Shown: positions 2,299-23,000 of the stretch, one piece after another | How the letters are laid out: each line of letters starts with the position of its first letter | Position numbering within the stretch: position 1 is the stretch's first letter | Program-made: the position numbers and the translations under genes | From: Candidatus Saccharimonadota bacterium | GTDB lineage: Bacteria; Patescibacteriota; Microgenomatia; UBA1406; GWC2-37-13 | Assembly (NCBI GenBank): GCA_016432445.1 | Contig: CP066689.1 | Location: forward strand, 1,071,690 to 1,103,689 | Direction: 5' to 3' | DNA length: 32,000 nucleotides | The notes under the pieces: generated by a model | Told to the model about the DNA's origin: nothing | The model's database searches: none | What the model saw: the letters and a program-made list of their open reading frames with translations, nothing else

Positions 2299-2304
2299 TA
2301 AATT

Positions 2305-4285: not shown

Positions 4286-4330
4286 TAATATTGAGGCTTA
4301 ACAGAGCCTTAAAGATTGAATTAACGTTCG

Positions 4331-4744: not shown

Positions 4745-5004
4745 AATATTAAATATAACATATATTAAAAAAAACAAGGCCAATTGTCATTTAACGCTTC
4801 GGATTGATCTGATCTGGAAACTTTGTGAAGTCGTCCCGACGTGGCGTCTTTACAGATGATTAAAACAAATTTTACATTTATCAAAATAAACATACGTCTG
4901 CTAAAAATTAAAAAAAAAGCTATAGCTTATTCCATAGACTTGAAACTTAATCAAGTTAACCTGGTGATAAATATTACTTGCAGACGTTAATTTTAAAATA
5001 AGAA

Positions 5005-5402: not shown

Positions 5403-5948
5403 ATGCAACTACAGTATAATCAGTATAATTTTGAATCTTCTTTTAAAAACTATTTACTTGCGGAAAAAGTAAAACCTGTTACTTTAAAAAATTATCTGTC
5501 CGATTTAAGACATTTTTTGGGGTGGTTAACAATCCCATCTCACATCAATGTAGGGACAGGTCGCGACCTGTCCCTACCAGATGAAACGTCATTCATCACC
5601 CAAAATCTGACCTTAGAAACCCTTGAAAATTACAAGCAGTATCTTATATCAAACAACCTGCCTTTACTAACTGTAAACCGCCGCCTCTCTACTCTTCGTA
5701 AGTTTTGCACCTTTTGTATTTCTCAAGGATGGATGAAGGAGAACCCAGCGAAAAAAATTTCAAATGTCAAATTTCAAATGTCAAGTGCAGGGGTCGGGCG
5801 TGACCGACCCGAGACAATGGATGAGGCAAATATCGGATATGTATTAAAAAAATATAAAACATTCATTGAAAAAGAAGGCCTTTCCAACAATCAAATCGAT
5901 AAAAATATTACAGACGTGAAGGATTTTTTACAAATTATAAATTCATAA
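5403..5948 (+). CDS. Stand-alone phage-integrase N-terminal SAM-like (core-binding) domain protein; no catalytic domain
   Basis: 181-aa ORF with three copies of the x-Y-xx-[YF]-L...T...Y/L..L..F..W pattern: FKNYLLAEKVKPVTLKNYLSDLRHFLGWL, LENYKQYLISNNLPLLTVNRRLSTLRKFCTFCISQGW and LKKYKTFIEKEGLSNNQIDKNITDVKDFLQI. These are typical of tyrosine-recombinase core-binding domains. No R-K-H-R-H-Y catalytic region follows. Confidence 0.6.
   Translation: MQLQYNQYNFESSFKNYLLAEKVKPVTLKNYLSDLRHFLGWLTIPSHINVGTGRDLSLPDETSFITQNLTLETLENYKQYLISNNLPLLTVNRRLSTLRKFCTFCISQGWMKENPAKKISNVKFQMSSAGVGRDRPETMDEANIGYVLKKYKTFIEKEGLSNNQIDKNITDVKDFLQIINS
5550..5577. repeat. Perfect 28-bp palindrome inside the SAM-like CDS
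   Basis: gtagggacaggtcg|cgacctgtccctac is perfectly self-complementary (14+14). It is GC-rich within AT-rich coding sequence. It encodes VGTGRDLSLP, located between the first and second SAM-like units. Confidence 0.8.
5758..5810 (+). repeat. Heptamer array (tttcaaa tgtcaaa x2) followed by a GC hairpin, inside the SAM-like CDS
   Basis: tttcaaatgtcaaa (5758-5771) and tttcaaatgtcaag (5772-5785) form a direct 14-mer duplication. A hairpin follows: gggtcgg (5791-5797), loop gcgtga, ccgaccc (5804-5810). Together they encode ISNVKFQMSSAGVGRDRP. Confidence 0.75.
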
Positions 5949-6125
5949 AAATATGATACAGCTAACCTCGTTTGTCGGTAAAGGTTTGGGAACTTTAAGA
6001 TTTTTATTGGATCCTGCGGTTGAAGGAAATCCTTACGGATCTTCATTTCATAAAAGAAAAAAACAAACCACGGATAAACCAAGGACACCTCTTTTTCGAA
6101 GAAGATTGGCCTGGCGTTAATAAAT

Positions 6126-6180
6126 CCCCTCTTGTAAGAGGGGTCCGGCCATTGGCCGGGGGGTGTTTTCTTATGAAAAC
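6126..6180 (+). repeat. Truncated copy (3 hairpins) of the modular hairpin array seen at 7169 and 12796
   Basis: Hairpin 1 is cccctct-tgta-agagggg (6126-6143). Hairpin 2 is ccggcc-att-ggccgg (6145-6159). Hairpin 3 is gttttc-ttat-gaaaac (6165-6180). It has the same order and the same conserved flanks (atcccctct...agaggggt, ggggtgtttt) as the other two copies. Confidence 0.7.
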
Positions 6181-6390
6181 CATAAAACATATCTGGAATA
6201 AATGGGAAGGCTTAATAGCTTCGCTCATTTTGTGGCTTTCCAAAAAGACTAGATACAATGTAGATAATGAAAAAACGGATCATTTTATCACTTACCCCAA
6301 CAAAAGTGCTAACATTTTTCAAATTTTTTTCAATGCAGTTTCCAAGCTCCAATCCGTGAGAATCAGCTTTAAATCCGTTTTAATCTCTAT

Positions 6391-7032
6391 ATGAAAAATC
6401 AAAAGAAACAAACCCCACTTCGTCTCGTTAAGCAAGACTACGCGGGGCAAGCAATTTACGCTTTTATCGACAGCCAGAATGTCAATCTGGCAATCAAAGA
6501 CCAGGGCTGGGCACTCGATTTCGCCAGATTTAAAATATATTTAAAAGATAAATATCACGTTTCAAAAGCCTATTTGTTTATCGGCTTAATCCCAGGTAAT
6601 CAAAAACTTTATGATTTTCTTAAAAAAGCCGGATATATCCTTTTTTTCAAACCAACGCTGGAAATTAAAGACGGAAAAACTAATAAGATTAAAGGGAATG
6701 TGGATGCAGAATTAGTACTACATTCAATGATTGAGTACCCTAACTATGATAAGGCCATCATCGTAACGGGTGATGGAGACTTTTATTGCTTAGTGGAATA
6801 TTTGTTACAGAAAAATAAACTATTACGGGTAATCATACCTAATATAACTAAGTATTCCCGACTATTCTACAAATTTAATCCTTACTTGGCTTTTATGAAT
6901 AACTTAAAAAATAAGCTGGAGCATAAAAAAAGAGAGGCGTCACTTAGGCATGAAAGCCTTCAGTTGTCCTCTCATCGTAATAATATAAATATACCAAAAA
7001 TTAAAAAGAAGTCAAGCACAAAAAATGTCTGA
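6391..7032 (+). CDS. NYN domain (LabA/DUF88-like, PIN-fold) putative RNase
   Basis: 213-aa ORF. The motif order AFIDSQNVNL ... GNVDAELVLHSM ... AIIVTGDGDFYCLVEYL matches the acidic-residue layout of NYN/LabA-like domains. The C-terminal tail is basic. Confidence 0.75.
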   Translation: MKNQKKQTPLRLVKQDYAGQAIYAFIDSQNVNLAIKDQGWALDFARFKIYLKDKYHVSKAYLFIGLIPGNQKLYDFLKKAGYILFFKPTLEIKDGKTNKIKGNVDAELVLHSMIEYPNYDKAIIVTGDGDFYCLVEYLLQKNKLLRVIIPNITKYSRLFYKFNPYLAFMNNLKNKLEHKKREASLRHESLQLSSHRNNINIPKIKKKSSTKNV

Positions 7033-7056
7033 ACCGGCGCGCGCGCCCATCCAGAC
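7027..7056. other. GC-rich nested palindrome just after the NYN stop codon
   Basis: gtctg (7027-7031) pairs with cagac (7052-7056), enclosing the 12-nt alternating CG palindrome ggcgcgcgcgcc (7036-7047). No U-tract follows, so it is a weak terminator candidate at best. Confidence 0.3.
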
Positions 7057-7168
7057 AAGTTAATAACAGTTTACAAAAAAAATTATTATTTGTCAAGAAC
7101 GAATATGACTAAAAATCCTTTGATAAAAATCTGGTACAGGTGGGAAGGGGTGATTGAATCTTTCATAT

Positions 7169-7311
7169 CCCCTCTTCTTAAGAGGGGTGGACTCCGACGT
7201 AACGTCGGAGGACGGGGTGTTTTAAACAATAAAAACACCTCACCCCGCTCAGCGGGGGACTCCTCTTACAAAGAGGAGAATAATTCTGTCATCCCGCACT
7301 TGATGCGGGAT
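7169..7311 (+). promoter_or_regulatory. Six-hairpin structured leader upstream of (and overlapping the start of) the LamG giant gene
   Basis: The hairpins are: cccctct-tctta-agagggg (7169-7187); ctccgacg-taa-cgtcggag (7192-7210); ggtgtttt-N8-aaaacacc (7216-7239); ccccgc-tca-gcgggg (7243-7257); ctcctct-tacaa-agaggag (7260-7278, whose 3' arm carries AGGAG); and atcccgca-cttga-tgcgggat (7291-7311, which contains ATG 7303). Confidence 0.65.
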
Positions 7312-10300
7312 CTAGCGAAGCGTAGGCTTTTACTAATCTCTTTACTCATCATCCTCATCGGCCTGCCTATCGTCTTTCTTTCCCTGAAATATCAATCCAA
7401 AACCGAAGCCGCATGGTATAACGAAAACTGGACATATCGTCAAACTGTCGCTATCACCAACTCCGGCACTGCTCAAACTGATTTCCAAGTGTCTATCGGT
7501 ATCGGTACCTCCGCCTTAATTGTCTCTGGTAAAATGCAATCAGACTGTGATGACCTAAGAGTTACTGATATTAATGGAAAAATTCTGCCCTTCTGGATTG
7601 AGCCTACAACCTGCAATAACGCTACAAACAGCACAACAGTTTGGGTAAAAGCTCCCTCAATCTCAACATCAGGTACAACGCTTTATGTATACTATGGTAA
7701 TCCATCTGCCCCCTCCGGAGCCTCTGCCACCACCCAGGTTTTTATCAGGGAAATCAGCAACCTGCAGGGATCTTGGAACTTGGATGAATCCTCAGGCACC
7801 TCTATAGCTGATTCTTCCGGGAACGGCAACACCGGCACCCTGGCTAATGCCCAGGAAACAAACACCACTCTGACTGCCTCAACCTCAACCTCAATTTCTG
7901 ACACCAACAACGGCAATCTCTCAACTGGTCAGGGTTACGATCTCAATGGCATATATAATGGTATGACTTTAACCATGTCCGGCGCCAGCTGTAATGTTAA
8001 TGGCGAATCACGGACAATATCAGACTATACAGGAGCCACCAAAACTATTACTGTTTCCTCTGCCTTTTCCGCCACTCCCAATACTGCAAATTGCGGCTAT
8101 ACCATTAATCACCATATAGCAGGTAAATTTGGCAATGGTATGGCCTATGATGGAGCCATGGATGTCGGTGATCAAATCACCACCATCAACAATGCCGGAT
8201 TAAATATTACAGGCTCTTTGACAATGGAGTTTTGGATGAAGTTCCCAAGTGGCGCAGGAGGTTATTATAATGCATATATGGGTAAGAGTTCTGATAATTA
8301 TCTTATTCATTCTTATTATGGACAAGTTATATTCATAATTTCAAATGGCAGTTATAGCAGTAATTTTAATAATTGCCAGACTCCTACCAACTGGAATCAC
8401 TTTGTCGCTACCTGGGATGGTTCTACCAGGAGGACATATGCGAATGGCTCTCTGTGTACTTCCACTTCTGTGACAACAGCTCCTGCAAGTGATAGTGGAG
8501 GTATTACTATTGGATCAGGTGGCGCTCTTAATTGGCCAACAGTCATGGATGAGGCTAAAATTTATAACAAAGCTTTATCTCAAGCAGAAATTTCTGATTT
8601 ATATGGCACTGGGAGCAACCAGGGTTATACCACCAGTAACTATGCCAATAAAGTTTTGGTGAGAAAGTTTTCCTCATCAGTTTCTGTTGGTTCTCCGGGC
8701 AGTGAAACCCAGGGCCCGGGACCTGTTGGTTACTGGTCCTTTGACGACGGTCAGGGTACAGTCGCTCAGGATAAAAGTTCCTCCAAAAACAATGGAACAA
8801 TTTCTGGCGCTACTTGGACAACAGAAGACCAATGTATATCAGGCAAGTGTTTAAAGTTTGATGGTAGCAATGACGTTGTAACAGTTCCTGATAGTAATGC
8901 TCTTACCCCCACAGATATTACCTTCTCCATGTGGATAAAATCCCCAAGTATTACCGGCAGCCAAACCTTTTTAGGAAAATGGTATACCGGTACAAATCAA
9001 CGCTCTTATTACCTCTATACGGGCAGTTCTAATGTTGGTCTTTGTATTTCCAAAGATGGCACAGATCCAGGAGCTTCTTGCGCAGGTTCAGCCAACAATA
9101 CCCTGACTAATAATACTTGGTATCACATAACGGCCACCTATCATTATGTGACTGATGGGACTTCAGTGATCCAAATTTATATAAATGGCGTACTTAGCGG
9201 AAGCAGCTCAACCGTTGGAGGTCCTATATACAATAGTACAGGCAATCTTAATATCAGCACTTATGACGGAACAAACCAACCCTTCAATGGCTTCATAGAC
9301 GAACCTAAGATTTATCCTTATGCCCGGACTGCTGCCCAGGTCAAGACAGACTATAATTCGCGAGGATCTGCAGTAAAATCCGGTTCAGGCACTGCTTTAG
9401 GAGCAAAAAATCAAGATTATCTCTCCAACGGCCTGGTTGGCTACTGGAAAATGGATGAAACAGCTTCTCCTGCTGTTGATTCCTCGGGGAATGGAAATAG
9501 CGGCACCTGGACTGGCGATGCTACTTCTGCTGTTGGTAAGTTTGGGAATGGAGTAACTTTGGATGGAACAGGCGATTATGTATCTCTTGGCAACCCCGCC
9601 GTACTTCGCTATGGCAGCGCTATTACTTTAAGTGTCTGGGTTAAGCCCACTGTTACTTTACAAAGCGGATCTCCTGCTGAATCATTCATCCGTAAGGAAA
9701 GCGGTTGGAGCGGCTACGATCTTTTTTACGATGGTACCAATGGACGTATTATGGCTATCTTAGATAACGGAACTTTTAACGGTTATGTTACTTATAATAC
9801 TAACTTAACTGCTGGAACCTGGTATCACATAGTTCTGACCTACGATAATTCAACAGGAGTTATTTATGTCAACGGAGCGCAAGCCGCCAGCCGGTCTTTT
9901 GCTACCACAGTCGCAGACTCAGGCGTTAATCTTACCTTGGGAGCTGCTGACGGAGGTTCATCAGCCTTTAACGGAGTCTTGGACGAGGCCAGGATTTATA
10001 ACCGGGCCCTTTCACCTGGTGAGGTGAGCCAGCTTTACAACTGGGCCCCAGGACCACTAGCCTACTGGAATATGGACGAAGCCTCAGGCAATTTAACTGA
10101 CAGTTCAGGAAACGGATACACAGGTACAGCATCAAGCTTAACTGTTGTTCCTGGTAAATACGGCAAAGCAAGAAGCTTCAACGGGAGTTCTAGCACAGTT
10201 ACGGGATCTGTCAGTTTCAATGCTGGTTATACGGTTTCATTGTGGGTTAATTCTGCAGGAAACGCCAGCGGCACACAAATGATTTGGGAAGGACAAGATC

Positions 10301-12789
10301 TTTCTGCTCCATCATTGGAAGGTAATGATACTGGATACCTTTTTTACATGAACAATTCCAACAGTCTTAACACAGGAGCTTTAAGTACAAATCGCTGGTA
10401 TTATGTGACTGCCACCTATGATGGCTCAAATCAACGATTATATATTGATGGAGTTCTAAAAGGAACAAACACATCTGTTGCTTCTGATAGCGTAACCACG
10501 TTCTACCTTGCAAATAGAGCTGGTAATAGTCTTTATTGGAATGGAACTCTGGATGACGTCAAGATTTACAACTACGCCCGTACATCTAAGCAGATTGTCG
10601 AGGACATGAATGCCGGCCATCCGGCAGTCGGCTCTCCGGTTGGATCGGCTCTAGCTCATTGGAAATTCGATGAGGGATATGGCTCGACCGCAAATAATAG
10701 CGGTAATGGAGGGAACACTCTAAACGGCACTCTCGGCACCGGCTCCTCCGCCCCAACATGGACAAACAACGGAAAATTCGGCAAAGCTTTAAGTTTCGAC
10801 GGAACAAACGATTATGTCAGTATCCCAGATTCGGATGCTTTTAATTTTGGCACTGGAGATTTTACTATCAACTTATGGTTTAATAACGCAGGGACAACGG
10901 TTTCTTATCCTGCTTTAATAAGCACATACGGAGGGTGGTCAAGCGGGTCGTTTGGAATAAGGCATGATAATAACGGGGCTGCAAGTAAAGTTACAGTCCA
11001 CTGGAATCCAGTAGGAGATCCATTTATAACCTCCACGAATACTTTTGCAGACAATACATGGAATTATGTCTCTTTAGTCAGATCAGGAACATCGTTTACC
11101 CTGTATGTAAATGGCAAGATTGAGGGGACAGGGACATCGGCAACTGCTTTGGACTTGGCTTATGGAGGAAATGTTGATATTGGTTGGGGTCCGTGGGATG
11201 GCGCAAGTGGTTATTGGAAAGGTTTAATTGATGAGGTTAAAGTTTACAACTATGCCCTAACTGCTGATGAGGTCAAGCTTGATTATAACAGAGGTTCTTC
11301 TTTAGTTTTAGGTTCACTTTCTGTAAATACAGGCAATACAGCGCCCATTTCTGCCGCTTCTCAAGAATACTGCGTGCCCGGTGACTCCACCTCCTGCGCC
11401 TCACCAGTTGGACAGTGGGATTTTAACGAAGGCGTTGGAGCAACCGCATTTGACACGTCCGGCAACGGCAATGTCGGTTACTGGAACGGCACCGGCTCCC
11501 ACTGGACAAATGGAAAATATGGCAAAGCCGGCAACTTTAACGGTAGTGACGATTATGTTTCCACGAGCTCTACTTTTGAAACAACTAGTGCTACTTGGGA
11601 AGTATGGATAAATCTTAATAACTTCACCGCAACAGGAGGATATAGTCCTCATATACTCTATCAAGCTGATGGGAGTGGTGCTCATGAAACCAGAATAGTT
11701 GTTAATACTAATGGCACTGTTGCTTGGAATGTTTATTCTACCTCTTACCAATGTCAATTAACATCAACAACAACATTAGCAATAGGTAATTGGTATCATA
11801 TTGCAAGTCAATATGGTGCAAATGGATGCAATCTTTATATTAATGGGGTAAGAGAAGCTAATAATTCTACTACTAACGGCCCAGGAACTGGTGCTGTCAG
11901 ATTTGCGATAGGTAGGTTAGATTTCAACTCAACAGGCTTTACTAATGGCAAAATTGATCAAGTCCGGATTTTTGACTATGCCCGGAGTGCGGCCCAGATT
12001 GCCTGGGATTATAACCGGGGCGGGCCGGTTGGCTGGTGGAAGCTGGATGAAGGACAAGGCTCGACTGCTTTTGATTCATCAGGCATTGGAAATACTGGAA
12101 GTATTAATATTGGAGCTTCAGGAACTCAAACCTCAATCGGCACAGGCAGCAGCGCCGGCACAGCTTGGGGCAATGGAGTAACTGGAAAATTTAACTATTC
12201 TTTAAATTTTGACGGGACAGATGATTTTATTGGTCTGGGCAGTAGTGTTCCTTCAGCATTGCAGATTCAAAATGAGATTACTCTTTCTGCCTGGATTTAT
12301 GCTACATCCTACCCTGCTTCCGATACTCTAAGCATGATTGTCGGCAGCCAGAATGATACTAATACACAGGGCATAAGCATCTTTTTGGACGGCAGAACGA
12401 ATCCTGATAGCCAAACATCACCGGCAGGACACATTCATTTTCAGATAGGTGACGGCTCATGGCACACAACTAACGCTAACGCTGCTGTTTCTCTTAATCA
12501 GTGGGTTCATATTGTTGCCACAAGAAAAGCTAACGAAAACGCCAAGATTTATTACAACGGCGTCCCGCAGCCTATAACCAGTGTCGCTTGGACAGGAGCC
12601 ATCACTTATACGGCTGCACAGCTTAACATAGGCAGACAAAGGGATGCCAGCGGAAGTACGTACCGCTATTTTAATGGTCAAATTGATGATGTGAAAATAT
12701 TCAACTATGCCTTAACAGCAGACCAGGTTACAAATTTATATAACGGCGGGGCGGCCTTGAGATGGGGACCGAATACAGGTAGTCCGTAG
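7303..12789 (+). CDS. Membrane-anchored giant surface protein: TM anchor + DUF2341 + seven LamG (Laminin_G_3 / concanavalin-A-like lectin) repeats
   Basis: The ORF track frame is 7090..12789. I place the start at the in-frame ATG 7303, giving MRDLAKRRLLLISLLIILIGLPIVFLSL (basic N-terminus plus TM), because 7090-7302 is the hairpin array. DUF2341 signature: WTYRQTVAITNSG...DCDDLRVTD..G..LPFWIE...TTVWVKAPSIS..GTTLYVYYGNP (about 7429-7720). Seven units begin with W-x-[FLM]-[DN]-E..G....D.SGNGN.G and end with [FL][ND]G.[IL]D[ED].[KR][IV][YF]N.AL[ST]. Confidence 0.85.
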   Translation: MRDLAKRRLLLISLLIILIGLPIVFLSLKYQSKTEAAWYNENWTYRQTVAITNSGTAQTDFQVSIGIGTSALIVSGKMQSDCDDLRVTDINGKILPFWIEPTTCNNATNSTTVWVKAPSISTSGTTLYVYYGNPSAPSGASATTQVFIREISNLQGSWNLDESSGTSIADSSGNGNTGTLANAQETNTTLTASTSTSISDTNNGNLSTGQGYDLNGIYNGMTLTMSGASCNVNGESRTISDYTGATKTITVSSAFSATPNTANCGYTINHHIAGKFGNGMAYDGAMDVGDQITTINNAGLNITGSLTMEFWMKFPSGAGGYYNAYMGKSSDNYLIHSYYGQVIFIISNGSYSSNFNNCQTPTNWNHFVATWDGSTRRTYANGSLCTSTSVTTAPASDSGGITIGSGGALNWPTVMDEAKIYNKALSQAEISDLYGTGSNQGYTTSNYANKVLVRKFSSSVSVGSPGSETQGPGPVGYWSFDDGQGTVAQDKSSSKNNGTISGATWTTEDQCISGKCLKFDGSNDVVTVPDSNALTPTDITFSMWIKSPSITGSQTFLGKWYTGTNQRSYYLYTGSSNVGLCISKDGTDPGASCAGSANNTLTNNTWYHITATYHYVTDGTSVIQIYINGVLSGSSSTVGGPIYNSTGNLNISTYDGTNQPFNGFIDEPKIYPYARTAAQVKTDYNSRGSAVKSGSGTALGAKNQDYLSNGLVGYWKMDETASPAVDSSGNGNSGTWTGDATSAVGKFGNGVTLDGTGDYVSLGNPAVLRYGSAITLSVWVKPTVTLQSGSPAESFIRKESGWSGYDLFYDGTNGRIMAILDNGTFNGYVTYNTNLTAGTWYHIVLTYDNSTGVIYVNGAQAASRSFATTVADSGVNLTLGAADGGSSAFNGVLDEARIYNRALSPGEVSQLYNWAPGPLAYWNMDEASGNLTDSSGNGYTGTASSLTVVPGKYGKARSFNGSSSTVTGSVSFNAGYTVSLWVNSAGNASGTQMIWEGQDLSAPSLEGNDTGYLFYMNNSNSLNTGALSTNRWYYVTATYDGSNQRLYIDGVLKGTNTSVASDSVTTFYLANRAGNSLYWNGTLDDVKIYNYARTSKQIVEDMNAGHPAVGSPVGSALAHWKFDEGYGSTANNSGNGGNTLNGTLGTGSSAPTWTNNGKFGKALSFDGTNDYVSIPDSDAFNFGTGDFTINLWFNNAGTTVSYPALISTYGGWSSGSFGIRHDNNGAASKVTVHWNPVGDPFITSTNTFADNTWNYVSLVRSGTSFTLYVNGKIEGTGTSATALDLAYGGNVDIGWGPWDGASGYWKGLIDEVKVYNYALTADEVKLDYNRGSSLVLGSLSVNTGNTAPISAASQEYCVPGDSTSCASPVGQWDFNEGVGATAFDTSGNGNVGYWNGTGSHWTNGKYGKAGNFNGSDDYVSTSSTFETTSATWEVWINLNNFTATGGYSPHILYQADGSGAHETRIVVNTNGTVAWNVYSTSYQCQLTSTTTLAIGNWYHIASQYGANGCNLYINGVREANNSTTNGPGTGAVRFAIGRLDFNSTGFTNGKIDQVRIFDYARSAAQIAWDYNRGGPVGWWKLDEGQGSTAFDSSGIGNTGSINIGASGTQTSIGTGSSAGTAWGNGVTGKFNYSLNFDGTDDFIGLGSSVPSALQIQNEITLSAWIYATSYPASDTLSMIVGSQNDTNTQGISIFLDGRTNPDSQTSPAGHIHFQIGDGSWHTTNANAAVSLNQWVHIVATRKANENAKIYYNGVPQPITSVAWTGAITYTAAQLNIGRQRDASGSTYRYFNGQIDDVKIFNYALTADQVTNLYNGGAALRWGPNTGSP

Positions 12790-12795
12790 TGAAAT

Positions 12796-12891
12796 CCCCT
12801 CTTTGCAAGAGGGGTGGATTCCGCCAAAGGCGGAAGACGGGGTGTTTTATAAAACACCTCGGCCTTCGGCCACTCCTCTTACAAAGAGGAG
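12796..12891 (+). promoter_or_regulatory. Five-hairpin structured leader in the 109-nt gap between the LamG gene and the fibre gene; the last hairpin pairs the SD
   Basis: The hairpins are: cccctct-ttgca-agagggg (12796-12814); ttccgcc-aaa-ggcggaa (12819-12835); ggtgtttt-at-aaaacacc (12841-12858); ggcc-ttc-ggcc (12861-12871); and ctcctct-tacaa-agaggag (12873-12891). AGGAG at 12887-12891 lies 7 nt before ATG 12899. Confidence 0.7.
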
Positions 12892-12898
12892 AATAAAA

Positions 12899-15800
12899 AT
12901 GGACAATATTAACAAAGACACAATTAGAAAATATATACAGACGTTAAAAGAACGTGGAGAGGCTGATGTGACTATAAAATCTAAGCTATCCTCTATTGAG
13001 AGATTCCTCAACTGGGCTTATAAACAGCACTTTATAGATCTTGAAAATTTTGAGCAAATGAAAAATGAGATTGATAACGTGACAATGTCAAATGTCAAAT
13101 GTCAAATGTCAAAAATGGGAGAGGGAGCGGGGCAAAACCCCAAGGATGATTCACGATTCATGATTCAGGATTCAGGAAAGCTAGGTGTCATTGCGAGCGA
13201 TCCGCCGACTGGCGGAGAGCGCGGCAATCCCATCAAGAGATTGCTTCAGTCGCTTCGCTCCTTCGCAATGACAATGAAGGGTCGAAATGACAAAGAATCA
13301 GTCAGAATGACTAAGATCTCAGATCAAAGATCTAAGATCGAAAATCGAACATCGAATATCGAACTGGGTATCCAACACTATCTCGGCTTTGCGATTTTTG
13401 TTATTTTTATGTCTGCTTTGGGCGTAGGGCTTTATAATCAGTTCTTTAAGAAAGTAGCCACTCCATTCGCTTACCCTTCTTCTCCCACTAAAGGGGCACG
13501 GACGTTATCTTTTCAAGGAAGATTAACTGACAGTCTGGGAAATCCTATCACGACTGCAACAAACTTAAGTTTCAGACTTTACAGCACTGGCACAGGCGCC
13601 ACCTCTCCCAACCTTTACTCAAGCGGTACTTGCGCTATCACCCCTGATGCGGACGGAATATTTTCAACTTTAATTGGCCAAGACTGTGGATCGGAAATCG
13701 GCAGTGATGTTTTTACAGAAAATGCCAATGTGTATTTAGGGATTATGGTCGGCACTGATGCGGAGATGACTCCCCGTCAGCAAATCGCTAATGTTGGATA
13801 CGCCATGAATGCTGAGACTTTGCAAGGTTTACCTGTTGGCACCGGTACGACCGTGCCTTTTATCCCTTTTGTAAATTCAACAGGAGTTTTACAGATTGTG
13901 GCGGCTTCTCCTAAAATACAATCCACGTCCGGTACATTTACCATTGAAGGAGTTGCATTGAGTTTGACCACGCCTTCTGGATCAAACGGAAATATTAATC
14001 TTATGCCTGACGGAACAGGTAATGTCGGTATTGGCACTACTGCCCCAGGCGCCAAATTACAAGTTAATGGAACTGTCAAAATTGTTGACGGCACTCAATC
14101 CTCAGGCTATGTATTAACCTCTGATGCTAATGGTCTGGCCTCCTGGACTGATGTTTCCTCTTCTGCCGGACCCTGGACATTAACCGGAAGCAATCTTTAT
14201 CCTGATGCCACAACTTACAATGTGGCCATCGGCGCCACCAATGCCGGCACAGCAAAATTATATGTTAATGGCAATGTTGGCATCGGGACAACCTCTCCTT
14301 TAGCTAAATTAGAAATTGGGAGTGGACAGATTTTTGTTCCTAATGGGAGCTACGCAGCCCCTTCATATTCTTTTAGTAATGATCCTGATACAGGAATTTA
14401 TCTAAACGGTAATGATTCTGGCAAAATAAGTTTTAGCACACAAGGAGCAGTAACATGGGAAATGACTGGTGATTTCTTTGGAAGTGCCAATGCTGGAGGA
14501 GCATACTTGACGAGTGCAACAGCTACTTCCACAACGCCCTCTATTGCTTTTAGAGGAGATGCTAATACAGGTTTAGGTTTTGCAGGTGCAGACATACTTT
14601 CTCTTATCGCTGGCGGAACCAACACCATGAATATAACCGGCGGCAACGTCGGCATCGGGACAACGAATCCAGGATATAAATTAGAGGTTGCAGGAGATAG
14701 TTCCTGGATTCATTTAGATGGTGGTAATGCAGGTTTGTACTCTGACAGAGGTGTAACAAACGATACTTCTGCCGTTTACTTCCAAACAGCAGGAACAACG
14801 AATTATATTGTAGGTGTTGGAGCTTATACTACAGGAACAAGATTTGATATCGGAAGCGCAAGCAGCTCATTTTTGACTATAGATACAAATGGTAATGTGG
14901 GTATAGGCAACACTAATCCTCAAGCAATGTTTGTAGTTGGTGTTGGTGTAACCACACCTTTCCAAGTCACTTCAACCGGAGATATTACAAGAATTAAAAG
15001 CATCACTTACAGCTGGCCTTCTGCTCAAGCCTCAACTGCGGGAAGTGTATTATCTAACGATGCAACAGGTGGACTCTCATGGACTAGTAATGCTTCTGTT
15101 GGCCCATGGACTTTATCAGGATCAGATCTTTTCCCTGACCTTGAATCTTACAACGTGGGTATTGGTACAACCACCGGAGCCGGCACTGCCAAACTTGCCG
15201 TCATGAACGGTAATGTCGGTATTGGAACAACGAATCCAAATTACATACTACATTTGAGAAAATTAGTAGCTGGAGATCTCGGTCCAACTTTATTCCTTGA
15301 CAATCCAGGCGGTGCGGCGGGCGATAAAGCTAATATAGACTTTGGTAGTACTCCAGGACCTACTACGAAAGCACGAATTCAATGGAATCAGGTGGCAAGT
15401 GGAAATGCAGAACTTTACTTTATGACAGATATCTCTGGAACATTAGCCAGCAGATTAATGATAAAAGACGGAGGAAACGTCGGTATTGGGACTACAAATC
15501 CTTCATCTTTTAAATTAGAAATGGCGGGGAATGTTGGACCGTCAACAAGCGCGGCTTATGACTTGGGTTCTGATACAAGAAGATGGGCAAATGTATATGC
15601 TAACAATCTCTGTCTGTCAGGAACTTGTGAATCTACCTTTGCTGATCTTGGTCCATGGGATTTGATTGACTCCAACCTCTTCCCTGATGCCACAACTTAC
15701 AATGTGGCCATCGGCGCCACCAATGCCGGCACAGCTAAACTTTATGTTAATGGTTTAGTAGGGCTAGGTACCACTGCTCCCACTTATGGCCTGACTATCA

Positions 15801-16540
15801 ACTCATCTTCTCCTGCGCTTGAATTTAGATACAACGAAACAACAGCTGGTTGGATAGGACATGCGTCTTCTCTTATTAGTGGCGGCGGAACAACTGATAT
15901 GGGTGTAAGAGCTGAATCAGGGAAAAACTTATTGTTTGGTATAGGTACGGCAGAAAAAATGAGAATCAATAGTGACGGCTACGTCGGCATCGGGACAACG
16001 AATCCAAGTTACCAATTAGAAGTTGTTGGCCTTACTGCTATAAAACCTTATTCTGCCACTGATGCTAGACTGATATATTTACACGCAAATAATGGTCAGA
16101 CAGCAATAGGACTTTATGACTCAAATAGTCAAAATCGAGCATATCTTTGGGGGACTGACCTTAGTGGAGGCGGTGGAAGTCTCATTTTACGAGACACTGG
16201 CTCTAATATCATGACTTATTTAAGTGCTTCAGATAAATCGTACATTACCGGTGGTAATCTTGGTATCGGCACCACTAATCCATTTGGAATGCTCCAAGTA
16301 GGCGCCACCAACTCACCTTATGTTCCAGCCTTGTTTGTCTCCACAGGTGGAAATATTGGAATTGGTACGACCAACCCTACCAGACAACTGACGATCGGCG
16401 GATCGGGTCAAATAAAGTTTTCAGGAGACTCTGACCATTATATTTATGATGAAGACGAAAATCCAAGAATCTATATTAAAAATGCGCCTCTCAAATTACC
16501 AATGCTCTTCCAACTCAATTTACATCTTCAGGTGATGTAA
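12899..16540 (+). CDS. Fibre gene, segment 1: cytoplasmic integrase-SAM-like module + repeat-derived linker + TM helix + extracellular GNVGIGTT-repeat fibre
   Basis: The track ORF is 12803..16540. I start at ATG 12899, which is preceded by AGGAG-N7. The N-terminus reads DTIRKYIQTLKERGEADVTIKSKLSSIERFLNWAYKQHF (SAM-like pattern). The TM helix is LGFAIFVIFMSALGVGLY. About 11 G-N-[VIL]-G-I-G-T-T-x-P-x-x-K-L-x-V motifs follow. It ends in an out-of-frame tail (APLKLPMLFQLNLHLQVM*) created by an indel at 16484-16491. Confidence 0.8.
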   Translation: MDNINKDTIRKYIQTLKERGEADVTIKSKLSSIERFLNWAYKQHFIDLENFEQMKNEIDNVTMSNVKCQMSKMGEGAGQNPKDDSRFMIQDSGKLGVIASDPPTGGERGNPIKRLLQSLRSFAMTMKGRNDKESVRMTKISDQRSKIENRTSNIELGIQHYLGFAIFVIFMSALGVGLYNQFFKKVATPFAYPSSPTKGARTLSFQGRLTDSLGNPITTATNLSFRLYSTGTGATSPNLYSSGTCAITPDADGIFSTLIGQDCGSEIGSDVFTENANVYLGIMVGTDAEMTPRQQIANVGYAMNAETLQGLPVGTGTTVPFIPFVNSTGVLQIVAASPKIQSTSGTFTIEGVALSLTTPSGSNGNINLMPDGTGNVGIGTTAPGAKLQVNGTVKIVDGTQSSGYVLTSDANGLASWTDVSSSAGPWTLTGSNLYPDATTYNVAIGATNAGTAKLYVNGNVGIGTTSPLAKLEIGSGQIFVPNGSYAAPSYSFSNDPDTGIYLNGNDSGKISFSTQGAVTWEMTGDFFGSANAGGAYLTSATATSTTPSIAFRGDANTGLGFAGADILSLIAGGTNTMNITGGNVGIGTTNPGYKLEVAGDSSWIHLDGGNAGLYSDRGVTNDTSAVYFQTAGTTNYIVGVGAYTTGTRFDIGSASSSFLTIDTNGNVGIGNTNPQAMFVVGVGVTTPFQVTSTGDITRIKSITYSWPSAQASTAGSVLSNDATGGLSWTSNASVGPWTLSGSDLFPDLESYNVGIGTTTGAGTAKLAVMNGNVGIGTTNPNYILHLRKLVAGDLGPTLFLDNPGGAAGDKANIDFGSTPGPTTKARIQWNQVASGNAELYFMTDISGTLASRLMIKDGGNVGIGTTNPSSFKLEMAGNVGPSTSAAYDLGSDTRRWANVYANNLCLSGTCESTFADLGPWDLIDSNLFPDATTYNVAIGATNAGTAKLYVNGLVGLGTTAPTYGLTINSSSPALEFRYNETTAGWIGHASSLISGGGTTDMGVRAESGKNLLFGIGTAEKMRINSDGYVGIGTTNPSYQLEVVGLTAIKPYSATDARLIYLHANNGQTAIGLYDSNSQNRAYLWGTDLSGGGGSLILRDTGSNIMTYLSASDKSYITGGNLGIGTTNPFGMLQVGATNSPYVPALFVSTGGNIGIGTTNPTRQLTIGGSGQIKFSGDSDHYIYDEDENPRIYIKNAPLKLPMLFQLNLHLQVM
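13085..13112 (+). repeat. Four perfect tandem copies of heptamer ATGTCAA inside the CDS
   Basis: Perfect atgtcaa units at 13085-13091, 13092-13098, 13099-13105 and 13106-13112. They encode MSNVKCQMSK. The unit length is not a multiple of 3. Confidence 0.9.
13148..13175 (+). repeat. Four tandem heptamers GATTCAN inside the CDS
   Basis: Units gattcac, gattcat, gattcag, gattcag, encoding DSRFMIQDS. Confidence 0.85.
13187..13272. repeat. 86-nt compound palindromic element inside the CDS
   Basis: Perfect 10-bp terminal inverted repeat: gtcattgcga (13187-13196) and tcgcaatgac (13263-13272). There is an internal hairpin tccgcc-gact-ggcgga (13201-13216). It encodes VIASDPPTGGERGNPIKRLLQSLRSFAMT. 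I recall peptides of this flavour as translated repeat elements in many uncultivated-bacterium proteomes. Confidence 0.75.
13323..13371 (+). repeat. Seven degenerate tandem heptamers (NANATCN) inside the CDS
   Basis: Units aagatct, cagatca, aagatct, aagatcg, aaaatcg, aacatcg, aatatcg, encoding KISDQRSKIENRTSNIE. They lie immediately before the TM helix. Confidence 0.8.
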
Positions 16541-17016
16541 GTATTGCTTATGATATTAACTTCACCAATCCAACCGCATCCTACATCAAGTCTCAAGCTC
16601 CTTTTTACATTCAATCTGGTGAATCTTTTGCTTCAAGTGACTTAACATTGGCAACATACAACTCCGGTGATTTAATGATGGATATTGGTGGAACCGGTAC
16701 AGGCACAGGAACGATTAAATTTTATGACTCCAATGTTAAAGGCGCCTCAACCACAACCGCTATCGCCTTCTCTGACTCATCATCTGACGTTAATCAATAC
16801 CGAACTAACTACACTGATGAAACTATCATTGGAGCTTTAAATGAAGTCTATGCCGCCGCACTTGGATCTTCCGGTTTCTGGCTTGACGGAGGAGATTACC
16901 TTTACCCCAACTCAACTTATGCAACCAATATCGTTGCTACCACTGGAAGAATTGGAGTCGGCACAACCAATCCATTCGGTATGTTACAGGTTGGAGCCAC
17001 CAACTCTCCTTATGTC
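16304..17016 (+). repeat. Intragenic cassette D, copy 1 (713 bp), carrying the frame-breaking indel
   Basis: Homologous to 28581-29330 with scattered, mostly third-position substitutions. The one major difference is that 8 nt (gcgcctct, 16484-16491) replace 45 nt of the other copy. Confidence 0.9.
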
Positions 17017-20000
17017 AATGACCCAAATGTAACCTCAGCCGTAACTGCGGTTTTAGACTCAGCCAGCGATGGCGGTGATGGGTATGGAAGCGGGATAACA
17101 TTTAACAGGATGCGGGGGACAATACCCAGTCCTACGGCAAACCAGGCAGGAGATACAATTGGTCAACTTATTTTCCAAGGTCGCACAGATGCCAGACACT
17201 CAGCAGCTGCAATCTATGCTGATGCCGATACCGGCTGGGGGGCAACCGGAACTGATTCACCGGGAAGGCTTAGATTTTTTACTACCCCTGACGGCTCAAG
17301 CACTTACGCAGAAAGAATGAGAATAGACAATCAAGGTAATGTCGGTATTGGGGATGCTTCTCCGGCATATCTTTTTACAGTTGGTGATGGAGATTTGTTT
17401 GGGGTTAACTCTTCAGGGTATGCCCTTTTGCCAGCCGGGGCAGCAACTACCCCATCTTTAACATTCACGGGGGACACAAATACCGGACTTTATAGTACAG
17501 CTGCAGATAAATTGGGTCTGGTGGCAGGCGGGACAGAGACAATGACAATCACAAATGGCAATGTCGGTATTGGGACAACTAATCCAAGCGAGAAACTTGT
17601 AGTTCAAAAGGCAGCTATTACTCCGGGAACTGTAACCTCTTATCATCTGGGTATTGGAGTAGGAACCGAGGGTGATGCTACTTTGACTCTGGGAGCAGAT
17701 AGTTCCTATGCTTACCTACAAAGCTGGAACAACAGGCCTCTACAAATAAACAACCAAGGAAATAACGTTATCTTCAATGCTACAGGTGGTAATGTGGGTA
17801 TTGGAACAACTAGTCCAGGGGAAAAGTTAGAAATAGAAGATAGTGGGGCAGCAAGGATTCTTATAGACGCAGGGACAACAGCACAAATTTATCTTGACAG
17901 AGGGGGTAATAGTAATGCTGATAGCTCTATAAATTTTCTAACCGCTGGTACAGATAAGTTTTCTATCGGGTTAGATAATGACAATACAGATAATTTCTAT
18001 ATAGCAAATGGGTCTATGACTGAGGCGAATAAAAAGGTCACAATAGATACCTCCGGCAATGTGGGTATCGGGACAACGGGGCCGGGGGCAAAATTAGATG
18101 TCAATGGGCATCTTAATGTGGGCGATACATTTTCTAACCCCGATGGCTATAATAAATTGATTAGAGTAGGCGACCCCTCTCATGCAAAAATCGTCGTTCA
18201 GGTTGGAACAAAAATAGGCCAATTAGTCACTGAATCTGACTGGTCTTATTTCCAGCTTGGCGCAAGATCAAATGACGATTTGCGGCTTATAGCTAATAAT
18301 GCTAATATTATGTCATTGACAACAACTGGCAACGTCGGCATTGGGACGACTAACCCTGCGAATAAACTGGAAGTAGTTGTTGGAACCAATAAACGAATTG
18401 CCATTGATGGTAACTTGGATTGGTCTTCATACTTTGGAGATCTTTCCACCCAAGGCCCAATTATTAGATTTTCTAGACCAAGTGATGGTGATTTTCTGGG
18501 TTTGATTGGTACTTATAATACTGCTGGTGGCAGAAACAACCTAGCCCTTTCCTCAAGAAATGATATTGTCTTTGATAGTGAAAATGGAACAGAAACCATG
18601 AGACTACAAACCGGCAATGTCGGTATTGGGACAACTGCACCATCCTTTAAACTTGAAGTGGCTGGAAATATTGGGCCGGATGCTAATGCCACAAGAGATA
18701 TTGGATCATCTGCCAGACATTACAGTACAATTTATGCTGACAATATCGTTGGTACCGGAGCTTTAGGTTATTGGAATAGAAATTCCACCTCCGGATATCT
18801 GTATCCGGCTACCATCACTGATTCTCTTGGTATCGGCACCACTAGTCCTTTTGGAATGCTCCAAGTAGGCGCCACCAACTCCCCTTATGTACCAGCCCTG
18901 TTTGTTAACAACGCTGGTACTAACGTGGGCATCGGGACAACAGCTCCTGCTTATAAATTAGATGTTAATGGATCGATAAGAGCCACTGAAGCTGATTGGG
19001 GCGCTGGAGGTCTTACTGTCTTTATGGGAGCTACAAATGCAGGCTCTCTTGGCACAACTGGCTCAGGGAGATTTGCTTTAACTGCAAGTGGTTCTGTAAA
19101 TGGCATGTATCTTTCAGGAGGAGGATCAAATATTGATTTTGCTTCCAATGCTCTAAATTTTAACAGTTCAGCCATGGTTCTCGACGCAGGGGGCAACTTA
19201 GGAATTGGAACTGCAACCCCAGGAAGTAAGTTTGTGGTTATGGGTGGCAATGTTGGCATTGGGACAACGAGTCCGTATGCTCTTGTTGATACCAATTTAC
19301 AGATAGCCAATTTTACAAGCGGGAATGCCAGTGCTTTAGAGCTTCTTGGAAATAGGACTACCGCAAGTGCACAGGTGGGACAAATCGCATTTCAAAATCA
19401 ACAATCTACAACTGCGAGTAAAGTTATTGCTAATATTCAAGGTATTACTGATGGAACCTATGATGCAGAATCAGGAGCCTTATCATTTTGGACAGCTAAC
19501 ACTGCTGGCACACTTTCTGAACAGGTCAGAATAACAAGTAACGGCAATGTCGGTATCGGAACAACTAATCCAGGACATGCTCTTGATGTTAATGGTGCTG
19601 TCAACATTGCAATTAATACTCCATATAGAGCCGCCGGTAATGCTATTTTAGGAACAGCCTCAAGTAGTGATACTTATTTAAGATCTTACAACGATGACAT
19701 TTTCTTTCAAGATTCATCTGGAAATAATTTAGCGGCAATCACAGATACAGGAAATTTAGGTATCGGAACTACTACACCAACTACTAAACTCTCCTTTGCA
19801 GGTTCTGCTGATGGATATGATGCTATCGATGTAGGAGGCACAGCTGGTAAACAATGGGGACTGTATTATGACCAAGGATCTTGGCTTGCAAGCCTTTTCA
19901 GTATTGATGAATTTTCATCCGATGGTTCGAGAACTCCTAGGCTAACGATTAACAACGGTAATGTTGGTATCGGGACAACGGCGCCGAGTGCACCACTTCA

Positions 20001-23000
20001 TGTTTGGGGAACTAATGGAGTAGTCGATATTGGCAAAGATGGCACTGGACAAAACTGGCTCAGGTTGTTTGGAACAAACTCAGATACTTACATAGAAGCA
20101 GATAGTAATGATGCTTACTTTACTACCAATGCAACTCATGCCTCTGGTGGATGGACTATTCCAGGTTCTGCTTTCAGCAGCTGGGCCATAGAAATGACAA
20201 GTAAAAATACCAGCGGAGAGAAATTTACTATTTATCACTCTGATCAAAGTTCAGCAACATTTAGTGAACGGTTCGTTATAGATGAAAATGGCAATGTAGG
20301 CATTGGGGCAACTAATCCGTCATCCTTTAAACTTGAAGTAGCGGGAAATATTGGGCCTGACGCTAATGCCACAAGAGATATTGGATCATCTGCCAGACAT
20401 TACAGTACAATTTACGCCGACAATATCGTTGGTACCGGAGCTTTAGGTTATTGGAATAGAAATTCCACCTCCGGATATTTGTATCCGGCTACCATCACTG
20501 ATTCTCTTGGTATCGGCACCACTAGTCCTTTTGGAATGCTCCAAGTAGGCGCCACCAACTCCCCTTATGTACCAGCCCTGTTTGTTAACAACGCTGGTAC
20601 TAACGTGGGCATCGGGACGACTAATCCAACCAGTTCATTACAAATTGCAGGTTCTACTCCCAGAATAGATATTGGTACCGGAATAAGCGGTGATTCAGCT
20701 GGTATTCTATACATACATAATTATAGTGCCGGACAAGATCGGCCTATGATTCTTCAACCTAATGGTAGCCCAGCAGGAATAGTCATGGCTGCTCCTTTCA
20801 CTATTCAAGGTAACTCTTTAACCTTTAATTATCATAATGGCTCTGCATATGTTGCCGGTCTTTCCATAGCTCAAACTTCAGGTGATGTCTATATTGCTCA
20901 AAATGGCGGCAACGTCGGCATTGGGACAACGGGACCGGATACAAAATTACATTTGTATGAAACTTCTGGCGCCTTGGTTGCAAAATTAAATTCTACAGAT
21001 ACTACAAGTTATCAAGCTATTGCTTTATTGGAAAGTGGAACAGGTAGTTACATAGAGCATATGAATAGCGCACATCCAACGGTAGCAAGAAGGAACAATC
21101 TTGAGCTTTATAACCAAACTGCGACTGGGGGTATAACTTTCCATACTGCAAACAATACGACGCCCAAAATGGTGATTGATTATCTCGGCAACGTTGGCAT
21201 TGGGACAACGGCGCCGAATGCTCCTTTAGAAGTTGTGGGCAATCTTTACGGAACAGGATTAAATGATCAGGGGGTTTATTTTAAAGATTCCACAACTGCT
21301 GCTCAAAATGTTGGTGGAAGTATCCTTTTAATGGGTAAAACCGGAACCGGAGACAATTATGCAACTTATGGAGAAATTCACGGAGGAAAAGAAAATGCGA
21401 CGGCAGGAAATTATGCTTCTTACTTGAACTTTGCTACCAGAGCTGATGGCGGAGCAGTAACAGAACAGATGAGAATTAACTCAAATGGCAACGTGGGCAT
21501 TGGGACAACTGCTCCAGCAGCTAAACTTCAGGTAGCTGGAGACCATATTCTCATTGATAACCTCAAGACATTTTCTGGCAAAAATACAAGTGGGACAGGT
21601 GTAGGGTTAATTGGCATTGACGATGGTAATGCTATCAATATTAATCGCAATGGGGCTGCTGTATCTACTGTTGTGAACATCGGTGCAAGTGATGGTATAT
21701 ATTTTATGGACAATTTTACTACTTATAATATGACAATTAAAGGAACAGGCAATGTAGGCATTGGGACTGATACCACCCCTGATTATCTTCTTGAACTCTA
21801 TGATGCTACTAATACCCCCACCTTTGCCCTGTCTGATGATGATGTAGCCCATTCATTTACAGATTTAGCCAATGCTGATACTTTTGCTCATCTCACTTCC
21901 CTTTCTACCACTGCAGGAGGGGCTCTTTTTCAATCATTCTCTGATGGTGATGCTTCAGGGTTTAACTTAAAAGTAGGTATTGGTACTACCGATCCTACAG
22001 ATTCTACCCCGGCCATTAAATTAATTGGAGGGAAATTATCTGGGACTACTTTAGGAGACCTGGCTGCAACTGAAACAGTATTGCAAATAGCTAACAATGA
22101 TGATGCAGCTGCTTTAACTATCCTGGGTAATGGCAACGTCGGCATCGGGACAACTAATCCGTCATCCTTTAAACTTGAAGTAGCTGGAAATATTGGGCCT
22201 GACGCTAATGCCACAAGAGATATTGGATCATCTGCCAGACATTACAGTACAATTTATGCTGACAATATCGTCGGTACCGGAGCTTTAGGTTATTGGAGTA
22301 GAAATTCCACCTCCGGATATTTGTATCCGGCTACCATCACTGATTCTCTTGGTATCGGCACCACCAATCCATTCGGTATGCTCCAAGTCGGCGCCACCAA
22401 CTCCCCCTATATTCCAGCTTTGTTCGTTAACAGCGCTGGTACTAACGTGGGCATCGGGACGACAGGGCCTTCTGCTCTTTTGCACCTCTACAAAACTGGT
22501 GCTAATGCTGATATAACCCTGGATACTACAGGAGATGCAGATAGATATAACAGACTATATTTCAATGCCGCCCGGGGCAGTAACGGACAAACTGTTGGTC
22601 AACTTAGCTTTAATAATGGCGGGGCAACTCCTGTAGCAGAGATTATTGGTATAAGAAGTGCAACTGCTACAACAGGATTTTTGAGTTTTTTTACAAGTAA
22701 TTCTGAGGCAATGAGAATAAGCAGTACAGGTGGACTATCACTGGGGTCAACCTATGTCAGCACAGACCCAGGGGCAGGAGCAATGATAGTAAGCGGCAAT
22801 GTCGGCATTGGGACAACCGGGCCAACTTATAAATTAGATGTTAGTGGTACAGCTCGGATTAACTCTACTACCAGCACCCTTCTTGATTTAACAAGCACCC
22901 AAACTTATGCTCAAATGCAATTTATTGAAGGCTCCACGACCAGAGGATATTTTGGTTATGGTGACAGTGGTGGAGTTTTAACTAATGCCTTACCAGATTC

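Follow-up and report, generated by a model that had tools for sequence, protein, structure and literature searches.

The subject of this analysis is a recurrent hairpin array in a 32,000-nt stretch of contig CP066689.1 (Candidatus Saccharimonadota bacterium), referred to below as the window, to which all window counts and positions apply. The genes around the array code for a small integrase-SAM-like protein of 181 aa (5403–5948), an NYN-domain protein (6391–7032), a DUF2341/LamG protein (likely start ATG 7303, stop codon 12789) and a 1213-aa repeat protein (start ATG 12899), with a 73-aa open reading frame (ORF) between the SAM-like and NYN genes; a third giant gene spans 16648–27543 and has no copy of the array. 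Three loci, at 6126–6180, 7169–7278 and 12796–12891, had been described in a first-pass annotation as sharing one ordered architecture, and this was borne out. The motif CCCCTCT-N3–7-AGAGGGG occurs exactly three times (at 6126, 7169 and 12796), always on the + strand and with none expected from 100 shuffles, and GGGGTGTTTT is present 3′ of every one of these hairpins (3/3 loci). CTCCTCTTACAAAGAGGAG is found at 7260 and 12873, again with none expected in shuffles, so that an identical CTCCTCTTACAAAGAGGAG(AATAA) closes both full copies; copy 6126–6180 breaks off just past the start of hairpin 3. As first described, hairpins 2 and 4 vary in sequence between the window copies and remain self-complementary.

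A covariance model (CM) trained on 103 distinct left halves of the array from other genomes found exactly five units in the window, three on the + strand and two on the − strand, with E-values of 1e-10 to 1e-13. What looks like an array of five hairpins is therefore one ~50-nt unit present twice in inverted orientation: the order of five hairpins initially proposed is present in the sequence, but these are not independent hairpins, and hairpin 3 arises where the two inverted units pair through their G/T tails. A unit reads, in order, pyrimidine arm (CCCCTCT), loop, purine arm (AGAGGGG), variable GC hairpin and GGGGTGT(TTT). In a variant type, also present in the window, all three blocks are altered together (CTCCTCT / AGAGGAG / GAGGTGT). 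The stems of the window units are 7–8 nt long, and the second loop (loop 2), which forms the variable hairpin, measures 16–27 nt. A strict detector for a pyrimidine arm, a purine arm and a mirror third strand matched only these five units in the window and gave 0 matches in 200 shuffles.

Unit 1 (6122–6169, +; CM 50.3 bits, E 4e-13), which is also recognized by alignment to the other copies, stands alone. It comprises CCCCTCT at 6126–6132, AGAGGGG at 6137–6143, the hairpin CCGGCC/GGCCGG at 6145–6159 and GGGGTGT(TTT) at 6160–6169; after it, an inverted partner is represented by a 5-nt stub (GTTTTCTTATGAAAAC, 6165–6180). Doublet B (7165–7282) has as its left half unit 2 (7165–7223, +; 51.1 bits), with arms CCCCTCTT / AAGAGGGG, loop-2 hairpin CTCCGACG/CGTCGGAG and third strand GGGGTGTT at 7214–7221; its right half is unit 3 (7232–7282, −; 39.9 bits, E 7e-10), of the variant type, with arms CTCCTCTT / AAGAGGAG, hairpin CCCCGC/GCGGGG and third strand GAGGTGTT when read on the − strand. 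Doublet C (12792–12895) is built likewise. Its left half, unit 4 (12792–12848, +; 51.2 bits, E 2e-13), has the pyrimidine arm at 12796–12802, the purine arm at 12808–12814, the hairpin TTCCGCC/GGCGGAA at 12819–12835 and the third strand GGGGTGTTTT at 12839–12848. The right half is a second variant, unit 5 (12851–12895, −; 43.2 bits, E 7e-11), which in + strand reading runs AAAACACCTC (12851–12860), hairpin GGCC/GGCC (12861–12871), CTCCTCT (12873–12879), AGAGGAG (12885–12891) and AATA. By the CM, both window doublets join a GGGG-type unit to a GAGG-type unit.

For occurrence elsewhere, an exact 25-base composite pattern (CCCCTCT..AGAGGGGT..GGGGTGTTTT) was run against a one-genome-per-species collection; counts over pattern-matched loci come from the matches listed, single loci of this and other searches are cited by L-numbers, and the taxonomic spread is qualitative. 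At least 115 loci matched, across many phyla. Hosts among the matches listed include Flavobacterium, Pedobacter and Chryseobacterium (Bacteroidota), Cysteiniphilum and Caedibacter (Proteobacteria), Paceibacteria, Gracilibacteria, Parcubacteria and Dojkabacteria of the candidate phyla radiation (CPR), and Verrucomicrobiales, Planctomycetia, Kapaibacteria, Cloacimonadota and others. The units are multi-copy, with several per genome in many metagenome-assembled genomes (MAGs) and isolates and often on many contigs of one genome. Most are intergenic (of 126 copies, 104 fall outside long ORFs), and their orientation with respect to flanking long ORFs is essentially random (32 opposite/opposite, 28 same/same, 14 convergent and 11 divergent). 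The suggested association with gene starts did not survive this comparison, in which at least 115 loci were found in random orientation, an outcome that the first-pass annotation had itself named as refuting a dedicated leader.

Within 100 of the listed loci, the CM found 173 units, neighbouring ones being arranged head-to-head (24 pairs) or tail-to-tail (26) and only rarely in tandem (11); solo units occur as well. Doublets of a GGGG-type and a GAGG-type unit were also seen in L022, L129, L136, L138 and L144, and doublets of Planctomycetes and of Flavobacterium are likewise heterotypic. A pattern scan of viral contigs returned only 2 loci, and blastn of the unit against plasmids gave no match because the unit is a short query. 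Rfam gave no gathering-score match for the window or for 12 of the loci, hits at E up to 10 being at chance level, and no tRNA or tmRNA genes were found. Two lineage-specific composites were observed: in Verrucomicrobiales (L014, L018, L021, L028, L036, L040 and L119), two units enclose a conserved central hairpin, AGCGTT...AACGCT, and in Planctomycetia (L026, L042, L044, L078, L089 and L109), the repeat reaches ~30 nt past the units on both sides.

The predicted RNA folds of the array are much more stable than those of shuffled sequences (z = −6.8 and −7.3). As single-stranded DNA, each unit gives two hairpins and, with Watson–Crick folding only, leaves the G/T tail unpaired (unit 2, z = −5.2). 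The insert between AGAGGGGT and GGGGTGTTTT, which the search pattern left unconstrained, is represented by 75 distinct sequences of 11–30 nt, nearly all of them hairpins. Pairing was found in 83.5% of alignment cells for this loop-2 hairpin, whereas shuffles gave 54.9% and sliding the partners gave no more than 41%; double-change cells numbered 183 versus 59 expected. The covariation score was 0.314 versus 0.078, and none of 500 shuffles scored as high; the pairing-preserving variation first noticed in hairpin 2 is accordingly strong covariation. Wobble pairs in these stems are one-sided (10 G·T and 0 A·C, all on the G-rich strand) and therefore suggest that one particular strand folds.

A second level of coordination involves the tail. 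GGGGTGT is the antiparallel mirror of the purine arm AGAGGGG, with G placed on G and T on A, and the variant tail GAGGTGT mirrors AGAGGAG in the same way, including A on A. Three-block covariation was then measured in loci picked only by the canonical pattern. There, the purine arm GAAGGGG was accompanied by a tail of the form GGGG[TA][TA]G (the GGGGTAG type) in 28 cases versus 3 with the canonical third strand, GGAGGGG by GGGG[TA]GG in 9 cases versus 1, and AGAGGAG by G[TA]GG[TA]G[TA]; four arm types, each with its own matching third block, were found in other loci. For non-canonical arms, the antiparallel rule accounted for 109 cases, compared with 25 for a parallel rule and 14 for an upstream control. 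Judged from the sequences, the three blocks change in concert, and this natural covariation speaks for the triplex rule itself. The tail had also been considered as a simple direct repeat, GGGGTG occurring twice in the unit, but this was dropped because the tail shifts to GGGGTAG, GGGGTGG or GAGGTGT exactly as the mirror rule prescribes. Since purine-motif intrastrand triplexes cannot form in RNA (Holder et al., PMC4666352), the constraint acts on DNA.

Three syntenic Microgenomates relatives (L156–L158) match the window in genes 829–4783, the SAM-like gene, the small ORF and the giant gene. These relatives lack the NYN and LamG genes, their small ORF lies immediately next to the giant gene, and no unit was detected in 40 kb by either the CM or the strict detector. 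By this synteny, a 6.7-kb segment of the window (6122–12898, +), holding the 73-aa ORF, the NYN gene and the DUF2341/LamG gene, has unit 1 at its left edge and doublet C at its right, and doublet B divides it between the NYN and LamG genes. The units appear to mark the junctions of a lineage-specific insertion here and may have promoted them. Such a layout fits the published link of these motifs with local rearrangement, without proving that the units caused the insertion. The window belongs to a CPR bacterium of the Microgenomates group; homologues of its proteins come from Roizman-, Woese- and Shapirobacteria, and the window sequence was also found in Logan assemblies SRR121134xx.

As claimed in the first-pass annotation, the two full copies lie just 5′ of two giant genes, the gap to the start codon being 7 nt for one (12891 to ATG 12899) and 24 nt for the other (7278 to ATG 7303); the implied link to the giant genes is incomplete, the third having no copy. 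The purine arm of unit 5, AGAGGAG, resembles a Shine–Dalgarno (SD) sequence 7 nt before ATG 12899 (12885–12901 on the + strand, including the ATG) and takes part in base pairing in all of the predicted folds. Only 3 of 26 metagenome loci matching the right-half pattern had a start codon spaced as for an SD (ATG in L138, possible GTG in L143 and L150), and no strong SD was found at the orthologous giant-gene start in L156–L158. Because the variant unit so rarely precedes a start codon at that distance and the relatives have no strong SD, the SD-like AGAGGAG is probably incidental, although possibly co-opted.

At copy B, the gene caller had run the LamG ORF back to ATG 7105, through the array. 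An in-frame insertion of copy B into a LamG gene truly starting at 7105 was considered and weakly rejected on the N-termini of LamG homologues, which do not conserve the 'IWxxWEG' peptide and favour a start near 7303. The ORF starts at 6173–6215 (after unit 1) and 7105–7165 (before doublet B) have a peptide in common (MKTIKHIWNKWEGLIASL and MTKNPLIKIWYRWEGVIESF) that is not kept in LamG homologues. Just past doublet B, an extra hairpin, ATCCCGCA-CTTG-ATGCGGGAT, occupies 7291–7311, and its 3′ arm contains ATG 7303, the likely LamG start. Two perfect GC-rich palindromes lie in frame in the 181-aa SAM-like ORF at 5550–5577 and 5791–5810 (GTAGGGACAGGTCGCGACCTGTCCCTAC and GGGTCGGGCGTGACCGACCC), the first with a 12-bp stem and a GTAG head; they translate as VGTGRDLSLP and GVGRDRPE and may represent a second kind of inserted palindromic repeat. 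Farther along, at 13990–31700, the giant proteins are built of dozens of GNVGIGTT-type repeats (families D1–D8, 30–56 copies), and recent segmental duplications link 16252–16789 with 28529–29103 (~90% identity) and 26446–26745 with 31620–31919 (96%).

Taken together, the arrays are best explained, with a probability of about 0.8, as repeated DNA of the BoxC/PIT/TM intrastrand-triplex class and not as an RNA element. This reading draws on the unit structure, the covariation of the three blocks and of the loop-2 hairpin, the multi-copy spread over many phyla, the lack of orientation bias and the absence of units from the syntenic relatives. The BIME-like palindromic mosaic (REP and BIME being short palindromic intergenic repeats) offered as the other possibility at the outset was right in kind, the units occurring solo, head-to-head and tail-to-tail, but named the wrong class. 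In the proposed structure, the pyrimidine and purine arms would pair as a Watson–Crick hairpin, and the downstream G/T block would run antiparallel along the purine arm, forming G*G.C, T*A.T and A*A.T triads, whenever the strand is single-stranded. The G-rich strand is predicted to fold into a triplex transiently, in replication, repair or transcription. The units probably spread or persist as selfish or neutral repeats, with DUF559 genes (described below) nested between or beside them, and effects on neighbouring genes, such as the stem-held SD-like AGAGGAG, would be by-products.

Several observations weigh against this explanation. The stems have only 7–8 triads and loop 2 of the window units is 16–27 nt long, and even the TMECO triplex proved stable only as isolated single strands, not in duplex DNA nor by in vivo DMS footprinting (PMC4666352). 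In the window itself, all three loci are co-oriented with the genes and lie near starts, and the right end of doublet C is the only SD-like motif before ATG 12899. Because of this placement and the SD-like motif, a local, secondarily acquired role in expression is possible.

The same features could be taken to indicate a cis-acting RNA leader of the giant surface genes, for example a riboswitch, thermosensor or translational operator whose hairpin 5 sequesters the ribosome-binding site, which is what the first-pass annotation had put forward. In its favour are the great stability of the fold, the covariation of hairpin 2, the pairing of AGAGGAG 7 nt ahead of ATG 12899 and the position of both full copies in front of large genes; against it, 24 nt separate the end of copy B from the likely start, ATG 7303, and the third giant gene has no copy. 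Nor do the units in other genomes keep an orientation to genes, Rfam has no match for them, the tail obeys a DNA purine-motif triplex rule, and neither promoter nor terminator activity was seen for PIT elements in E. coli (cited in PMC4666352). A dedicated RNA leader is unsupported because the units spread over many phyla (at least 115 loci) in random orientation and are absent upstream of the orthologous giant gene in all three syntenic relatives, and we consider it very unlikely. REP elements act as mRNA-stabilizing or terminator-like intergenic elements, and a comparable device that blocks 3′ exonucleases or pauses RNA polymerase between operon genes would agree with the stable hairpins directly after the LamG stop codon (12789) and with a simple scan that marks hairpin 2 plus its TGTTTT tail as terminator-like. 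Such a function is improbable here: among the matches listed, units lie downstream of co-directional and opposed genes about equally often (~50 vs 45), with no excess, the T run is short and set apart from the stem, the covariation of the third strand is left unexplained, and the PIT elements tested in E. coli gave no terminator activity (PMC4666352).

Mobile-element readings account for other aspects of the arrays. A conventional miniature inverted-repeat transposable element (MITE) or a REPIN, with a classical transposase or a RAYT (HUH) enzyme acting on it in trans, would be multi-copy, would have inverted-repeat doublet ends and solo or truncated copies and could sit at the edges of a lineage-specific insertion, as seen here. 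The inverted ends are inherent to the doublet. Against this reading, no GTAG head is present, and the core is common across phyla, unlike that of species-specific REPs. No clear target-site duplication is definable, the three window copies having only the element in common, and in the loci DUF559 genes, but no transposase, were seen beside units; around TMECO, too, no transposase, integrase or other mobility functions were found (Holder et al. 2015, PMC4666352). On this balance, mobilization of that kind appears highly unlikely. Like integron attC recombination sites, which mark gene cassettes, the elements are imperfectly palindromic, their structure being conserved and their centre variable; the window copies are co-oriented at gene boundaries, and nearby proteins have integrase SAM-like N-terminal domains. 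Those proteins have no catalytic integrase domain, however, and units elsewhere occur in both orientations and in non-cassette contexts. The attC reading is refuted because the R″/R′ core sites (RYYYAAC / GTTRRRY) are missing, the ends reading ATCCCCTCT ... AGAGGAGAATAA.

The units have a recurrent neighbour. Ten ORFs in the pattern-selected listed loci belong to DUF559 (PF04480), and all ten lie within ~100 nt of a unit. In six of them the layout is unit, DUF559 gene, inverted unit, the gene taking the position of the hairpin-3 loop, and the gene's 3′ terminus sometimes runs on into the right unit. Two of these loci come from CPR bacteria (L091 from Gracilibacteria, L095 from Parcubacteria). 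Repeat-flanked DUF559 genes were recorded in L022 (5658–6124), L039, L085, L091, L057, L243, L245, L248, L251 and L239/L241 (E. coli ycjD). In L124 (a Pseudanabaena plasmid) and L057 (a Psychracetigena MAG), the whole unit–DUF559–unit arrangement lies inside a larger annotated ORF (1621 aa in L124), and the frame is open through the repeats, as if in-frame insertion into a DUF1156/methylase-type gene had occurred.

Further sets of DUF559 loci were picked by protein similarity alone and not by the repeat pattern. Strict motifs were present in 5 of 8 loci of the first set, whose flanks were short. For ten plasmid or chromid loci with 3-kb flanks, strict triplex motifs were found within 200 nt in 8 of 10; 16 motifs fell in the 7.5 kb near the gene versus 11 in the 55.6 kb farther off, all 11 in one Photobacterium array, and without that array the figures are 15 in ~6.7 kb versus 0 in ~50 kb. 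The array itself (L242, 3518–4811, chromid of Photobacterium sp. GJ3) starts 190 nt downstream of the DUF559 gene and comprises at least 12 triplex motifs, which belong to two subtypes, alternate in orientation and are ~70–150 nt apart. The association of flanks is not universal: 80 DUF559-like loci on viral contigs gave 1 triplex motif in 111 kb, and 20 near-full-length DUF559-like viral-contig loci were mostly without flanking inverted repeats. The DUF559 gene of N. gonorrhoeae is flanked by CCTCTCTCCCTGTGGGAGAGAG repeats, and several DUF559 genes stand alone and reversed inside operons (hpa, a carboxylase cluster), as insertions would.

In E. coli, the 3′ end of ycjD, a DUF559 gene, falls inside a TMECO unit beside fabI. 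BoxC was reportedly first described at fabI, then called envM. Among 5426 complete E. coli genomes, 3378 (62%) carry ycjD, which together with BoxC fills the sapF–fabI interval (L241, L252 and L253), and the rest have the eef efflux operon there; according to a 2026 paper (PMC12817139), phylogroups A, B1 and C have ycjD in place of eefRABCD, with two or more independent losses. TMECO counts were given as 29 in E. coli 55989 and 1 in IHE3034 (PMC4666352). In O157:H7 rows we observed a single copy of the type-B TMECO 34-mer, most other E. coli genomes having 2–5, and the O157:H7 strain checked, 7386WT, was ycjD-minus.

In the literature searched, no paper linked BoxC/PIT/TM repeats to DUF559 (including ycjD, PF04480 and COG2852). 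The adjacency of the two is directly observed. By analogy with REPIN–RAYT systems, or with homing endonucleases for which the repeats would be targets, the triplex repeats may be the DNA partners of DUF559 nucleases, a tentative proposal to which we would give slightly less than even odds. The nuclease would then recognize the units or their structure and drive their spread, maintenance or local rearrangement, and ORF-less units such as those in the window would be non-autonomous relatives of DUF559-bearing elements.

BoxC/PIT/TM repeats have been known since 1992 and their triplex has been characterized biophysically. The class now reaches CPR, Bacteroidota, Verrucomicrobia and Planctomycetes, where its loop 2 carries a hairpin that puts it beyond published search tools, and the adjacent DUF559 family, small and uncharacterized and including E. 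coli YcjD, makes the old question of what spreads the repeats and what they do testable in E. coli. For annotation, the arrays carry a warning, as gene callers read through them and they can mimic RNA leaders.

Among known systems, REP, BIME and REPIN elements resemble the units in being short, palindromic and intergenic, single or in clusters of alternating orientation. Further points in common with REP/REPIN are an inverted pair flanking a small nuclease-type gene (DUF559 here, RAYT there) and strand-specific folding. Unlike them, the units have a third, mirror-repeat block and a core common to many phyla, and the associated gene codes for a PD-(D/E)XK Vsr-like nuclease and not an HUH/Y1 transposase; the genes found between units were DUF559, no search aimed at RAYT having been made. 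The unit consensus, AATTCCCCTCT...GGGGTGTTTT, lacks the 5′ GTAG head that is the hallmark of REPs. Gene-proximal MITEs such as Rickettsia RPE and the Neisseria Correia elements are also small, ORF-less palindromic insertions near or inside genes and, like copy B, L057 and L124, are sometimes read through by gene callers, but their sequence logic is different, and the units here gave no evidence of a transposase or target-site duplication. As for the nuclease, a survey of the PD-(D/E)XK superfamily groups DUF559 with Vsr and the I-Bth0305I homing endonuclease (PMC3424549). Like such I-Bth0305I/Vsr-like (EDxHD) homing endonucleases, DUF559 genes look like independent insertions into operons and spacers; unlike I-Bth0305I, they are free-standing here and not in introns or inteins.

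The closest likeness is to BoxC, PIT and TMECO, for which the literature reportedly includes Bergler (1992) and Hoyne and Maher (2000, 2002). These are one class, named BoxC at first, later PIT (potential intrastrand triplex) and then TM/TMECO, an intrastrand purine-motif triplex of the form CCCTCNCCC-N3–6-GGGNGAGGG-N3-GGGNGAGGG, with the third block on the purine arm (PMC4666352). TMECO elements are intergenic, show no strand bias, form inverted pairs of two different types and are linked to variable regions; they were reported in proteobacterial genomes, and G/C-rich triplex motifs were noted in cyanobacteria too (PMC4666352). The units share the block order (a C-rich arm and a G-rich arm, each followed by a loop, and then a third block that is G-rich), the adherence of that third block to the class II purine-motif rule (G*G, T*A or A*A), the intergenic, multi-copy occurrence with no orientation bias, the inverted pairs of two subtypes, a sequence kept across distant taxa and the association with variable regions. 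They differ in having stems of 7–8 triads (CCCCTCT/AGAGGGG/GGGGTGT) where TMECO has 9 (CCCTCNCCC...), and a loop 2 of 9–39 nt with its own covarying hairpin where TMECO has 3 nt. The TMECO sequence pattern of 9-nt stems and a 3-nt second loop does not describe the window units. Because stem length, sequence and loop 2 differ, they are, as far as sequence can tell, not TMECO members and form a different branch of the BoxC/PIT/TM class. Published searches for triplex motifs limited loops to 1–6 nt and 0–10 nt (PMC4666352), and the branch with a hairpin in its loop probably went unreported in CPR and Bacteroidota because loop 2 exceeds these limits. Hosts of the units further include Verrucomicrobia and Planctomycetes, and the adjacency of DUF559 was not mentioned in the TMECO work. 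The BoxC/PIT/TM class is thus a known one; the hairpin-bearing second loop, the phyla beyond Proteobacteria and Cyanobacteria and the adjacency of DUF559 are new.

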